This document shows, piece by piece, positions 37,013 through 50,069 of a stretch of DNA of 64,000 bases; the stretch's first letter is position 1, and every line of letters starts with the position of its first letter. The translations under genes were made by a program, and so were the position numbers. The stretch comes from an uncultured Acidimicrobiia bacterium. GTDB taxonomy: Bacteria > Acidobacteriota > Terriglobia > Versatilivoradales > Versatilivoraceae. The stretch spans positions 42,280 to 106,279 of the forward strand of contig CAWEPG010000009.1 of NCBI GenBank assembly GCA_963810905.1, given 5' to 3'. The notes beneath the pieces were generated by a model. That model had not been told where the DNA came from. It ran no database searches and saw only the letters and a program-made list of their open reading frames with translations.

Positions 37013-39845
37013 TTACCTGTGCTTCTTTGAGCTAGCCTCAATCACTTTGACGACTGCATCGGAAAAATGTCGACGAAATTCACGAATCGCGTTGTTTTTT
37101 CGAGATGGATAGACTCGATTGGTGAGGAGAACTATGAAAAGTTCCCGCGAAGGGTCAATCCAAATCGATGTGCCTGTGAACCCCGTGTGGCCGAATGCAT
37201 TTGAAGAAAGCAAGTTCCCTGCAGAACTCCCTTCCGAAGGGGTATCCCATCCCAGGGCCCGGCTGCTATTGGCAGGCTGCTGCTGGCGAGCCGTGAATTT
37301 ATCCAGGGTGCTCCGGAAAACCACGCGATGGTGATCGTAGACTCCCCCGTTAAGTATCATCTGGCAAAAAATGGCCAAGTCTCCGGAGGTCCCGAACAAT
37401 CCGGCATGGCCAGCAACTCCTCCCATTGCAAAAGTGTTCTCATCATGAACTTCACCTCGAAGCAATCGTTTTCTCCACGGATCGTGCTCAGTGGGCGCTA
37501 TTTTGGATTTTAAGTTAGCTGGAGGATTAAACAGAGTTTGGGACATTCCCAATGGGCGGAAAATTTCCTCGAATGAAAGAGTGTCCAATGTCAGTCCGGT
37601 TAATTTTTCGATGACATCACCCAGCAGGATCATTCCAAGGTCACTATATTCTGCTTTGCAGCCCGTTCTAAAATCTAAAGGGAGATTGAGAATCTTTTTG
37701 ACTATTTCCCGTTTCCCGTCGACTTGGCGATACAAAGGCCGGTGTGCAGGCAGTCCCGATGTGTGCGTCAGCAGATGAAACAAAGTAATCTTTTCTCTTC
37801 CGCCGCCTGTGAATGATGGATAAAAGCGAATGAGCGGATCGTCCAACTTCAACAGTCCTTGTTCGAAGAGTTGCATTGCCAGAGTCGTTGTAGAAACAAC
37901 TTTTGTCAGCGAAGCCAGATCATAGATGGTATCTGCCGTCACAGCAGGGCTTTTCGCGGAGTAGGAAAACTTACCATAACCGTGGTGAAAAACGAGGCTG
38001 TTGCGATATCCAATAGCCACCGAGGCTCCCGGGAAGGACCGCTTTTCGATTTCTGGAATGAAAAGATCATCCAGTGTGGTCTGAAGGGCTAAGCGCAATG
38101 CGAATAACTCTTTCGTATTACTCTGACACTTTGCTATTGATAAATCCGTCAAACGCATTTCGAACCTGTTTCGAAGAATTCCAGTACCTAGTTCAGCGAT
38201 CTTGGGGATCGTAATTGGCAGTCTTCCACGCATGTCAATCTCACCCAAAAGGGCTTTGACCGCCGAACGCTGGGAGACATCTGCGTTACTAAAGGTGCAT
38301 ATGTACAACGGAATTCGGGGGAATCCTTCAATGATGTAAGGGTTTCCAAATGCAATGGTAGCGACCGGTTGATTCAGTGACGAAAGCCTTTGAACCCAAT
38401 TCGCCAGCTTCTCTGGCAGTCCGACTGTGCCGGTCGCTGTGACCACCCTTGCAAACGCGGCACAAATGATGAAGTCTGCTTGCGCGGCAGACTGGAATGC
38501 CGCCTCCATTTCAGAGCTTGTCGATGAAGAGGCAATGTATGAAAAGGAAATTTGCTCGAGCCGATCTTTCAATTCTTTTTCGAAAACACTGGTCTCCTCT
38601 TGTGCGCCTCTTCCCAAGACAAGGCTAACGTGCACCGATCGTAGACGACGAACGTCTACCGGAACAATTTTGTTTTGGTCGCGTACCAATGTCATGGAGG
38701 CATCGGTCAATTCTTGTACCTGCTTCTGCAATACCGGACTATTGATTACCCGGCTGACTTGCCGCAGGTCAAAGCGGGGCTTTGTTGTCAATCCTAGCCA
38801 GACATTTGGCTTTCAAGATCTTATTGACAGAACGGTCGATTTGTCTTGGATCAATTTCTTTCCTCTGCACCGCACTGAGAAGGGCTTCATAGACAACACC
38901 TGGATTAGGGGGATCCAGCAATACATCAACCCCGGCATTGACAGCACGAACCGCCGCATCTCCGACCCAATAGTTTTCGGTAAGTCCAGACATGGTGAGG
39001 GAGTCAGTCACGATAAGTCTTGAAAAGCCAAGTTCCTTTTGGAGGATGTCCGTCAGTATTCGGCTGGAGAGTGTTGCGGGAAGTCCTGGCGTTGGCTCTA
39101 CGGATGGGACACTGATATGCGCTGACATGACTGACCAAACACCAGCTTTTATTGCTTCCTTGAATGGAGTCCACTCGACGGATTCTAATCGCTTTCGCCT
39201 GGCGTGGATGACAGGCAATGACAAATGGGAATCAATATTGGTATCACCATGCCCGGGAAAATGCTTGGCAGTTGCCAGGACGCCTGTTTCCTGAACTCCT
39301 CGTATGAATGCGACGCCCAAACGGGCCACCAATTCAGGATCGCCACCGTAAGAGCGAATGTTGATCACCGGGTTTCTGGGGTTGTTGTTGACGTCCAGCA
39401 CTGGAGCAAAGATCCAATTGACCCCTAGAACCCGAGCTTCTTGCCCTGTGGATTTTCCCTGAAAATAGGCCCACTGTTCCGAATCGGTGGCCCCCAAGGC
39501 CATGTTCCATGGGGGGGAAAGAGTATTGCGGATACGGAAACTGGCTCCTCGCTCAAAATCGGAGGCGACAAAAAGAGGTATTTCTGCAAACGACTGAAGC
39601 CTGTCGATCAATACAGCGGATTCATAAACGTCCCCGGCGTACAATATGAACCCACCGACATGACAATGCGTGATTTGACGTTTGAGTTCAAGGAACTCAG
39701 GACATGAGGAACTCAGGTAGATCCCTCGGAAGGCTGGCATGATCATCTGCCCGACCTTCTCTTCAAGCGATAACTTTCGAAAAGTCTTCTTGACCCAACT
39801 GAGGCCGAGGGATTTCTTCGAGCTTACTTTTTTTTCAGGGGCCAT
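37013..39845 (-). CDS. GH3 beta-N-acetylglucosaminidase (NagZ-like) fused to a serine hydrolase (AmiE/beta-lactamase fold); frameshift near 38800
   Basis: KHFPGHGDTNIDSH (NagZ motif); C-terminal SLTK (SxxK), YSD and GHTGFTGT. The two ORFs overlap and join with a 1-nt shift. Confidence 0.88.
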
Positions 39846-39907
39846 CAGAAAGTTAGGATTCCTGCTGACAAAATAAGAGTCGAAATAAGGCTGACTTGCC
39901 TATCCAT

Positions 39908-40884
39908 TTATCGAAATCGAGGTAAATGGACTATATCTTCAGTCGGGACTAGTTCTACGGGTTTTCCAGATCGCTGCCAGGCCGAGTATCCACCTTCGAT
40001 GGCATAGGCATTGTATCCATTCTCCCGGAGAATATACGCCACACGGGCGCTGGTTGCTTCGCGCAGTCAGGTGCAATACAAGTAAATTTCCTTGTCCTTC
40101 GACAGCTGGTGCATTTCATGCGGGAGACTGTTTGGCTCAAGGCGAATCGAACCTGGGATCCGCATGGCTCCAACATCATAGTACCCGTGGCTTCGCGTAT
40201 CCGCGACAATAACTTTTTCCTTGCTCTCCTGCGAGTTCAACTTCTCTGCCAATTCGTCTACTTGAATTCTGAGGTACGTCTCTAAATCGTCGAGTTTTCC
40301 TGTAGTTGCGGAGTCGTTGGATGAGATAGAGAGTCAGGCAAAACAACAGGATCCATTCGACTACTCGCGTGTAGGACGTAAAGCCAAGAAGGATATCAGT
40401 CAGTAAATGGCTGAAGAAGAATCCGAGGCCAAAGAAAGGGAAAACATAGAGGCAAGATGCCAGGAAGTCCCAGCCAAGGAACTCCAGCACCTTCATGTTC
40501 ATACTTCCCGCCATCGGGGGAGCCATGGTGTTAACTGCCGGGATAAACTTGGAAAACAACAAGGTCAACCGGCCATGTTTGTAGAACGACTCTGCGGATC
40601 TTAAGATACAATCTTCCGGGTTGTCAAAAAAGCGGCAGAGAAAACCTAAGATAGCCCAGCCTGTATAGCGGCCTGCCAGGAAAAGGATAAAATCTCCCAA
40701 TAACATGGATACGATAGCGAGTGAGATTACCTTAGAAAATGCGAGTGTTCCAAATGCACAAGCCGCTCCACCTGGCTACGAGTATTGGAACAGCAGGCAA
40801 AGGGAGTCCAATGGCTTCAAGAAATACATTGAAGAATATGATCCAATATCCGTAGTGCTTGAGGAGATTGCCGACCTCTAGCAT
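39908..40884 (-). CDS. DedA/VTT membrane domain + rhodanese fusion, probable selenoprotein; two 1-nt frameshifts (near 40772 and 40272) and an in-frame TGA at 40067-40069
   Basis: Reconstructed FLEAIGLPLPA...LGD...SKFIP...(rhodanese) DTRSHGYY...RIPGSIR...LYCT[TGA]LREATSARVA...IEGGYSAW...stop TAA at 39908. Confidence 0.8.
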
Positions 40885-41379
40885 ATCCTGTCATCCTTAA
40901 TATTTGGCTGATTTGCCCTGCTTCCAGATGAAAGGGGAAAGGCAAACTTATTGCATTGTAACTGAAATCCTTGAATTATGAGGGAGTGAATTCATGAGAA
41001 AGATGTCGCCTTTATCAATCCGGTGCCTCATCCACGGTGCAGAACTCCCACAACAGGTCCTTGCCACGGACAAGCTCATCACCGTCCAGATGAATACTTA
41101 TTTCGTCGGAAATTCGAAATGCCAGGCATCCAGTAAACAGAGGGCGCTTCATGGGAGAGTTCAAGGTAAGAGGGTTTCGGAAGGTTTTTCCGTAAGACTT
41201 ATGGCAGGCAAACGTGGCCGAGATAAATTTCTGTCTATTTGAGGATCTGTCTGTCCTTGAGGGAATCAATCATACCCCCCAAAGAGGCGCTTCGTGGCAC
41301 GCTTTGAGTGGAATGATCGTTCGGTGAGATGGAAAACTGGCCAAGATACGGGCCCCATTGAAAGAGCATTCACCCGAAG

Positions 41380-48370: not shown

Positions 48371-50048
48371 CTACTGAAGTCCGACGGCCTCGAGAAATCC
48401 TCCCGTATTACTCGTACTCTCCACGAGAGTGACAACGATTAAGGGTTGAAGGTTTGGAGATGTAATCTGCATTGGGCCAAATTTTCCAGTCAGGCCCATG
48501 TCCGCCAATATGTCACTGCTATAATAAAAGCCACCCACTGGGACAAAAATATCTGTCTTCGTAGCCAGCGTGGCACCGGTATCAGGATCGGATACAGTTA
48601 GAGAAGTTGCCCCGATTGCGTTCCCCAAGTTCAGGATGAATATTCCTGAACGGAAATTTCCCGTGTTAGTCACCGCATCGAGTACGAGATTCGCAAAGCC
48701 TGTTGAACGGCCTACTTGAAGGGCGGGATCATTGGTTGCATTATTGATTATCGAGATGAAACTTGAGAAAGGCTGATCAGAAGTTACCCGCACAGATCCA
48801 ATGGTATTGGTGACATTGCTCGTTCCAAGAACAAAGCGGTTGACGTTGTTAATCTGCAGAAATCCTTTGGATGCTATTTGTGCCGTATTTTTTCCCAATG
48901 AATTCCCGTTTTGGTCAAACAGCTCAACCTGAAAATTCCCAGTTACAGTACTGATATTGGTTATCCCTACATTCGCACGGTATTTATCGTTGTCTATGGC
49001 GAAGGGCAGATAGTTGATGAACCCCAAATTATTAACGTACACGCCGTCATTCGTCGGGCTTACAACCAACGCCGTATTATTGGAATTGTTCACAGCCACA
49101 CCGTTCGGAGTACTCCCAACATTCGTGTTCAGGACCGTCGGATATTTCGTGTTGTCATTAAGATTGAGCAAAGACATTGTACGGGCGTTACTGGAAACAA
49201 CTACGCCGACATTGGTAACCGTGTTGACGCTGATGCCAGAAGGGGGTACTCCCAAAGGAATCGATGCAGTCACAGGGCTTGCCGTAACCGGCAAAAGTTG
49301 TGTCAAGTCAATCACTGTAACATCATTCGACCCTGAATTTGCCACATAGGCCTTGTTTGTTGCCAAGTCCAGCGCAATATCTACCGGATTGGATCCCACG
49401 GCGATGGCCCGAATCAAGACCCGATTCGGAATGTTGATCACAGTGACATCATTGCTATTGAAGTTTACGACCAGGGCGACATTCTGAGCAGGATAGTAGG
49501 CCACACTGATGGGGCTGGTTCCTGCCTGAAGCTGGTCCGGCAGGATGGAAGTGTTGGTGTTCAGATCAATGATAGAGATTCCGCCCCCGTTCAGGTTAGC
49601 CACAATCGGCTAGATTGTTGGCTGTGTCGATAGCCACTGCCCGCGGACTATAGTGAAAGGTCGGATCCGTCGTGCTTTTGGCGCCAACCAACACCGTGGC
49701 CACAACGGATTTTGAAGCGAGATCGATGATCGAAACCGTATCGTCTCCGAAGTTCGTGACCACCGCCCGGTTGGTTACTGGGTTAATCGCAACGCTGGTC
49801 GGAGCCAACCCAACTGCTAAATTCGCCGTGACAGTACCTGTGCTCAAGTCGATAATTGATACCGAATTCGAATTTCGATTGGCGGTCACCGCAATATTGG
49901 TTTCAGGTATTACGGCGACATCAAAGGGACCGCTGCCTGTCGGCAAAAGGATCTGTTGGGCGTGCAAGGTGACTGTTCCCAACAAAATAAACCCTACCAA
50001 AATCCAAAACCTACGTTTCATCCATCCGTCCATTCTTAATGGCTCCAT
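48371..50048 (-). CDS. Secreted YVTN-type beta-propeller protein with one copy of the shared C-terminal module; frameshift near 49605
   Basis: Repeats such as AVVTNFGDDTVSIIDL and AYVANSGSNDVTVIDL. Removing one C gives NLAIVANLNGG. C-terminal YRANVGITN...GGFLE. Confidence 0.82.
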
Positions 50049-50069
50049 GTCGCTGGTTCCGCCTGTCCT

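Follow-up and report, generated by a model that had tools for sequence, protein, structure and literature searches.

The minus strand of the window, that is, of the whole stretch of 64,000 nucleotides analysed here, carries a DedA-rhodanese gene with an in-frame TGA in its rhodanese part. The explanation that best accounts for this gene as a whole, and that is very likely correct, is that of an intact selenoprotein gene with a recoded UGA, in which two single-base insertions would represent errors of the consensus. As judged by comparison with the family, the TGA is almost certainly a selenocysteine (Sec) codon that occupies the active-site position in a rhodanese anchored to the membrane. The gene is probably real and intact, and it would represent a known type of Sec-rhodanese in a membrane-fused form. 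A preliminary description had read positions 39908-40884 as a selenoprotein gene; this reading is supported at the level of the family, but the range does not constitute one frame in this assembly, two frameshifts having been overlooked.

Gene layout and the two insertions

In the list of open reading frames, the region 39908-40884 is split into three pieces lying in three frames: 40884-40732, 40706-40176, which holds the VTT/DedA match, and 40252-40067 (Table 1). The last of them is the rhodanese ORF. The preliminary description had this ORF stop at the TGA (40069-40067, minus strand) and its frame continue to the TAA (39910-39908), and both statements agree with the coordinates obtained here: 52 sense codons follow the TGA, they complete the fold, and the Pfam Rhodanese match spans the TGA itself. 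An intact orthologue is present in the relative G002 (L015:1498-2472, minus strand; 975 nt, corresponding to 324 codons plus stop), in which a single open frame has the TGA as its only interruption and the nucleotide identity with the window copy is 93%. Positions 1-121 of the PF09335 profile are all matched by this orthologue, and Pfam scores over the copies examined amount to 41.8-60.5 bits for PF09335 (gathering score 33.9) and 42.7-56.6 bits for PF00581 (gathering score 22.2). An AF2 model of the same orthologue, obtained from an alignment of 60 sequences (pLDDT 83.9, pTM 0.65), predicts that roughly the first 200 residues form a helical membrane domain and that an alpha/beta rhodanese fold comes after it. 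A Foldseek search employing this model matched only rhodanese domains of solved structures, and when the sequence of the DedA half was searched against solved structures, nothing meaningful came up (best E 0.27), so that the membrane half lacks a structural template.

Table 1. Window positions of the DedA-rhodanese gene, its domains and the elements discussed in the text
Feature	Position	Strand	Remarks
Whole DedA-rhodanese gene as assembled	39908..40884	-	977 nt
ATG start codon	40882..40884	-	aligned with the starts of the G002 and G001 orthologues
First extra base	40771..40774	-	private to this assembly; frame lost after about codon 37, inside the DedA domain
VTT/DedA domain, PF09335	40422..40703	-	profile positions 28-121, E 1.8e-8, middle-frame ORF
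Cys83 of the DedA domain, first of C-x8-C	40635..40637	-	60/60 aligned family members
Cys92 of the DedA domain, second of C-x8-C	40608..40610	-	60/60 aligned family members
Second extra base	40270..40271	-	private to this assembly; frame shift in the linker just 5' of the rhodanese domain
Rhodanese domain, PF00581	39971..40249	-	E 1.1e-11, residues 2-94 of the read-through product, across the TGA
Cys codon TGC, C of C-T-U	40073..40075	-	two residues before the putative Sec; invariant in family alignments
ACC codon, Thr of C-T-U	40070..40072	-	directly before the TGA
In-frame TGA, almost certainly read as selenocysteine	40067..40069	-	catalytic-Cys column of rhodanese
SECIS-like hairpin	40036..40050	-	5-bp stem (one G-U pair), 5-nt loop, G at loop position 2
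TAA, true stop codon	39908..39910	-	52 sense codons 3' of the TGA

With regard to the gene neighbourhood, genes for a CBS-domain protein and for an HpcH aldolase precede the gene in the window, and one for a GH3/beta-lactamase fusion lies downstream of it. Among the best 80 loci of a species-level genome collection, the genes found upstream on the same strand are those of a polyprenyl synthetase (PF00348; 47/80), a DUF520 protein (45/80) and TatD (40/80), an arrangement that occurs among close kin and is absent from the window. Since these loci are close kin and the neighbours in the window differ, no function was deduced from the neighbourhood.

Compared with the G002 orthologue, the window copy carries one additional base near 40773 and another near 40271, with no other indel within the coding region, and neither of the two falls in a homopolymer run. 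When both bases are skipped, the two copies differ over 325 codons by 40 synonymous and 13 conservative non-synonymous codon differences, and no further stop appears. Both positions were also inspected in Logan contigs of four public runs (X1-X4) from three samples, which derive from related strains mostly 95-99% alike and not from this organism's own reads, the best run containing 0.41 of the stretch's sampled words. In every contig that reaches one of these positions, the extra base is missing. At 40270/40271, contigs without the extra base have depths of 10.7/10.7 in X1, 3.21/3.21 in X2, 2.91/2.91 in X3 and 3.02/3.02 in X4; at 40771-40774, the corresponding values are 11.75/11.8 in X1, 3.49/3.49 in X2 and 5.19/5.19 in X4, X3 being uncovered there. 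The preliminary description had also proposed that the TGA be confirmed in sequence data, and, among the 40 listed of the 95 differences from these related environmental contigs, none lies at the TGA.

The background of indels was estimated over 160,392 aligned bases elsewhere, by comparing this genome's contigs C9, C21, C4, C8 and C1 with G002:C5:1353001-1753000. This comparison yielded 109 clean net-frameshift events, 30 of which break in this genome an ORF of at least 200 aa in G002 while 24 do the converse and 55 do neither; insertions make up 23 of the 30. The density of ORF-breaking indels is about one per 5-7 kb over both drafts and about one per 5 kb in this genome, and clusters of 2-6 ORF-breaking events in one ORF were found elsewhere in the comparison. 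Because the two insertions are private to this assembly and ORFs are broken about once per 5 kb with respect to the sister genome, they are read as assembly errors. On these comparisons, they most likely represent faults of the consensus or assembly and not biology. Programmed frameshifting was considered for the two insertions and dropped, as they are absent from all relatives and from all environmental contigs.

A further explanation is that this copy is a real and recent pseudogene, the family being a selenoprotein family in which two genuine 1-nt insertions killed the gene in this strain. This is unlikely, even if several observations speak in its favour: both insertions are present in the assembly as given and lie outside homopolymer runs, two frameshifts within 977 nt exceed the expectation at the mean rate (lambda 0.18, probability of two or more about 0.015), and a third frameshift in the adjoining GH3/beta-lactamase gene could mark a locally decaying region. 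Against it stands the rate of about one ORF-breaking indel per 5 kb sustained over 160 kb, with a similar number of events conversely in G002, which points to draft-assembly noise. Moreover, both insertions are missing from near-identical environmental contigs, and the substitutions still appear to be strongly purifying, with the 40 synonymous differences outnumbering the 13 non-synonymous ones. A consensus error at each insertion is consequently preferred, and ORF-based readings of this genome should allow for frameshift errors. In practical terms, draft long-contig MAGs can mask a real recoded gene by assembly frameshifts.

Over the 36.7 kb of the window that are syntenic with G002, isolated +1 insertions split two further genes, each of which is whole in G002. 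One of them is the GH3/beta-lactamase fusion (37013-39845, minus strand), a single 962-aa frame in G002; here, the GH3 N-terminal ORF (38769-39845) overlaps an ORF of another frame that encodes the GH3 C-terminal and beta-lactamase-family parts (37013-38791), with a net +1 indel near 38804. The other lies at 48371-50069 on the minus strand, where two abutting ORFs of 413 and 158 aa (stop to stop), with no Pfam match, correspond to one 566-aa ORF in G002 and the split is due to an isolated +1 insertion near 49607.

Conservation of the TGA column

The read-through rhodanese part was searched against the genomes of 40 relatives (41 with this genome). An in-frame TGA at the same place is found in 13 of the 40, which belong to several families of one class, so that relatives do keep the TGA in this column, a point that the preliminary description had proposed to check. 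Counting this genome, the motif [YF]C[TS]U is present in 14 of 41 genomes. With the TGA read through, the open frames of the relatives extend over 326-375 aa, and orthologues taken from the conserved ATG form single open frames of 311-330 aa in which the DedA domain precedes the rhodanese. At 14 of the 16 loci inspected, the window locus included, the sequence [YF]-C-[TS]-U is followed by x-x-E/D-A-T/S-S.

A second survey took the best 80 loci from the species-level genome collection, 3 of which lack the motif. In the 77 motif-bearing loci, the codon at this column is TGA in 72 and TGC or TGT in 5. Pairs of Cys and TGA in one column, suggested beforehand as a check of the selenoprotein reading, are therefore present, and of the Acidobacteriota genomes that match best, most carry the Sec form (72/77). 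According to the labels given by their submitters, almost all of these collection loci come from Terriglobia or Acidobacteriota MAGs. When both surveys are combined, the TGA occupies the column in 86 loci with the downstream hairpin conserved likewise; the observation is therefore more than chance. In one relative, G003, two Sec-form copies of the gene lie about 10 kb apart on one contig (C34:206195-206533 and C34:215992-216330).

Homologous entries of the protein database fall into two classes. The first comprises 271-aa entries ending in ...LYCT, for which the annotation is that of DedA or VTT proteins, and the second comprises entries of about 323 aa with LYCTC-x-x-[ED]-ATSARVA, which are Cys forms. 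To go by their sequences, the 271-aa entries are Sec forms cut at the TGA; in the database records examined, the Sec form is cut at 271 residues and the catalytic residue is lost. The TGA had been assigned to a Cys position on the basis of the motif YCxCPxExxSARVA. The assignment agrees with the full-length homologues, which have Cys there, and the motif itself was nearly right, except that a Pro after the second Cys is found only in distant Sec forms. In agreement with this assignment, the TGA column aligns on the catalytic Cys of the active-site loop in the solved rhodaneses 3foj, 3iwh and 6mxv, and a conserved Cys is located two residues upstream. The family would accordingly represent a widespread membrane selenoprotein of soil bacteria (soil Acidobacteria) that is systematically mis-annotated as truncated.

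The public annotation implies that the TGA is an ordinary stop and that translation yields a DedA protein of 271 residues ending in a truncated and inactive rhodanese stub. Gene callers indeed give this 271-aa product in many records, but such a reading is extremely improbable. The 52 codons 3' of the TGA are open and complete the rhodanese fold, and the protein sequence they encode is conserved as far as the C-terminus while their synonymous sites vary freely; homologues exist with Cys in place of the stop; and termination at this point would delete the catalytic residue itself.

The hairpin and the selenocysteine machinery

The selenocysteine reading of the TGA also draws on a hairpin located downstream of it on the minus strand, in which 40050-40046 pair with 40040-40036 and 40045-40041 form the loop. 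The hairpin had been placed about 21 nt after the UGA. It does lie there, although this figure corresponds to the distance to the loop, while the 5' arm begins after 16 nt; the G reported near the start of the loop is indeed its second base.

Constraint on this element was assessed from the entropy of synonymous codons for conserved residues, measured over 76 distinct Sec-form genes. In these genes the codons of the stem are frozen (AGC 75/76, GCC 74/74, GTG 74/74 and GCG 74/74), with an entropy of about 0 against typically 1.3-2.0 bits at four-fold sites of the same kind in other parts of the gene, and the codon in the loop is freely CGT, CGG or AGG. Cys-form genes keep the Sec-form stem codon in 2/4, 3/5 and 3/5 cases (Fisher p 0.002-0.003, from only 5 Cys-form DNAs). 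In an alignment of 77 sequences, the five core base pairs display standard pairing in 384 of 385 cells. The changes in the stem include one compensatory change from G-C to A-U, carried by 2/77 sequences, and three wobble changes, the G-U pair of the window among them, and RNAalifold recovers the same 5-bp stem from the alignment. A constraint on the hairpin at the RNA level is shown by these alignments, the freeze of synonymous sites being strong evidence for it and covariation proper being thin, as the core pairs hardly change. A scan of 39850-40950 against Rfam with E up to 10 returned no SECIS family and gave two chance matches (mir-207 and a piece of a lncRNA).

Codons outside the hairpin are also little variable. 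Of 75 Sec forms, 70 have ACT immediately 5' of the UGA, where the window has ACC, and the second and third codons after the UGA (40058-40063 in the window) are nearly fixed as CGC (65/69) and GAA (65/75). These near-fixed codons suggest that sequence-context constraints may extend beyond the hairpin.

In bacterial SECIS elements the loop lies about 16-37 nt from the UGA, and both the distance of the present hairpin and the G in its loop fit the bacterial pattern. Like the element of E. coli fdhF, and as in the bSECISearch model, it occurs right after the UGA and within the coding sequence and has a G close to the beginning of its small apical loop; unlike the fdhF element, it is much shorter and no bulged U was identified in it.

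The preliminary description had named selA, selB, selC and selD as genes to look for, and the genome contains selA, selB, selD and a tRNA-Sec. The tRNA is encoded on contig C6 (97 nt, anticodon tca), and the three proteins are matched in intact frames, SelA with 444 bits, which is above the curated cut-off, SelB with 364 bits (cut-off 242) and SelD with 379 bits (cut-off 125). From the TGA/Cys pair, the constrained hairpin and this machinery we infer that Sec is inserted at the UGA. Read-through of the UGA outside the Sec pathway, by near-cognate decoding as Trp or Cys with the hairpin merely stimulating, is scarcely credible: the inserted residue is indistinguishable from the sequence alone, but the genome has a complete Sec machinery, the position is that of the catalytic Cys with Cys in non-TGA homologues, the distance and loop G of the hairpin match the bacterial SECIS pattern, and the nearest curated family is also a (seleno)protein family with a C-x-U motif.

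The predicted product and its known relatives

Under the selenoprotein explanation, the product would be a 324-residue inner-membrane protein composed of an N-terminal DedA/VTT transporter-like domain and a C-terminal, probably cytoplasmic, rhodanese whose catalytic residue would be the selenocysteine encoded by the UGA (40069-40067). Recoding would depend on SelB and be directed by the small hairpin, with its loop 21 nt downstream of the UGA. A topology, a chemistry and a substrate may be proposed for this protein from its sequence features. An Arg/Lys-rich stretch follows the last helix, which by the positive-inside rule argues for a cytoplasmic rhodanese domain; that domain is probably located on this side of the membrane. 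The Cys at -2 (C-T-U) would probably resolve a Sec-bound intermediate as a selenenylsulfide, and the Sec would be the nucleophile of a persulfide/perselenide carrier that takes or gives an atom of sulfane sulfur or of selenium on the face of the membrane. At the membrane, transport by the DedA half might be coupled to this activity, perhaps via a C-x8-C pair. The pair is invariant in 60/60 aligned fusion proteins, Sec and Cys forms included, and absent from E. coli YghB, and it is predicted to lie in the cytoplasmic helices that separate one half of the DedA domain from the other.

The DedA half was compared with the COG0586 flippases (E. coli YghB and YqjA, B. subtilis UptA), with which it shares the VTT/DedA domain PF09335 and weak NCBIfam matches to PRK10847 and UptA, at scores far below the equivalog cut-offs. 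In a MAFFT alignment with E. coli YghB (20-29% identity), the Glu corresponding to E39 is retained, and Lys is found as a conservative substitution for R130. Unlike YghB, the family has no equivalents of D51 and R136 and carries the C-x8-C pair; the R136 column holds Asn, Ala or Ser, and the D51 column holds a hydrophobic residue, this column being less certain in a single alignment at such identity. It has been reported that E39, D51, R130 and R136 are all essential in YghB, and its arginines have been proposed as phosphate binders for undecaprenyl phosphate (PMC10127716). The lack of two of the four flippase-defining residues suggests that the substrate of the DedA half is probably other than undecaprenyl phosphate.

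A bolder proposal, doubtful as it is, would make of the DedA-rhodanese protein a dedicated membrane device for chalcogen trafficking. A divergent DedA domain, in which the flippases' phosphate-binding Arg was lost and an invariant cytoplasmic C-x8-C pair acquired, would carry a sulfur or selenium species such as selenite, thiosulfate or a persulfide across the membrane and pass it to the rhodanese Sec by a thiol/selenol relay. If true, this trafficking would give a molecular basis to an old genetic link between DedA and selenite, which Ledgham et al. reportedly described in 2005, to go by the title of their article. It would also bear on the view, stated in PMC13188914, that a specific transporter of high affinity for selenium is not known in prokaryotes. 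More generally, a DedA-family membrane domain tied to sulfur/selenium chemistry would offer a testable handle on roles of DedA proteins beyond the flipping of undecaprenyl phosphate.

A Sec-bearing CxU rhodanese domain is already known, and it is the DedA-fused form that is uncatalogued. The preliminary view of a missed selenoprotein is supported for the fusion, whereas the CxU type of rhodanese had been catalogued before: it is listed as a predicted selenoprotein in two reviews, PMC13188914, where it is named 'form 3', and PMC9312934, where it is named 'COG0607 form 2', and DedA has 0 occurrences in the text of either. A full-text literature search, with supplementary lists outside its reach, found no paper on a DedA selenoprotein. 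Fusions of DedA and rhodanese are known to exist, and section 6 of PMC10127716 regards their link to undecaprenyl phosphate as unclear and leaves selenium unmentioned.

The best NCBIfam match of the rhodanese half is NF041203 (rhodanese_LYCAU, 'rhodanese-related (seleno)protein'), which corresponds to form 3, or COG0607 form 2. The present family shares with it the L-Y-C-x-U active-site motif, here LYCTU, in which Sec is the catalytic residue and a Cys stands at -2. The cut-off of 115 bits is not reached by the window copy (78.6 bits) or by two orthologues (84.2 and 92.6 bits), and, while the NF041203 model describes a stand-alone protein over 126 positions, the rhodanese is here the C-terminal third of a 324-aa membrane protein. 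A Sec rhodanese fused to a membrane domain is also found in TsoB (NF045694, rhodanese/DsbD fusion-like), to which the family gives a weak match of 24-26 bits against a cut-off of 805 bits. Membership in TsoB was ruled out by this score and by the different partner and motif, TsoB having a DsbD-like partner, a UxxxxU motif and two Sec residues. The Cys-form DedA-rhodanese fusions (PF09335 plus PF00581) have the same architecture, 50-56% identity and the LYCTC...ATSARVA loop, and they differ in carrying Cys for Sec and in a DNA that has not retained the freeze of the stem codons.
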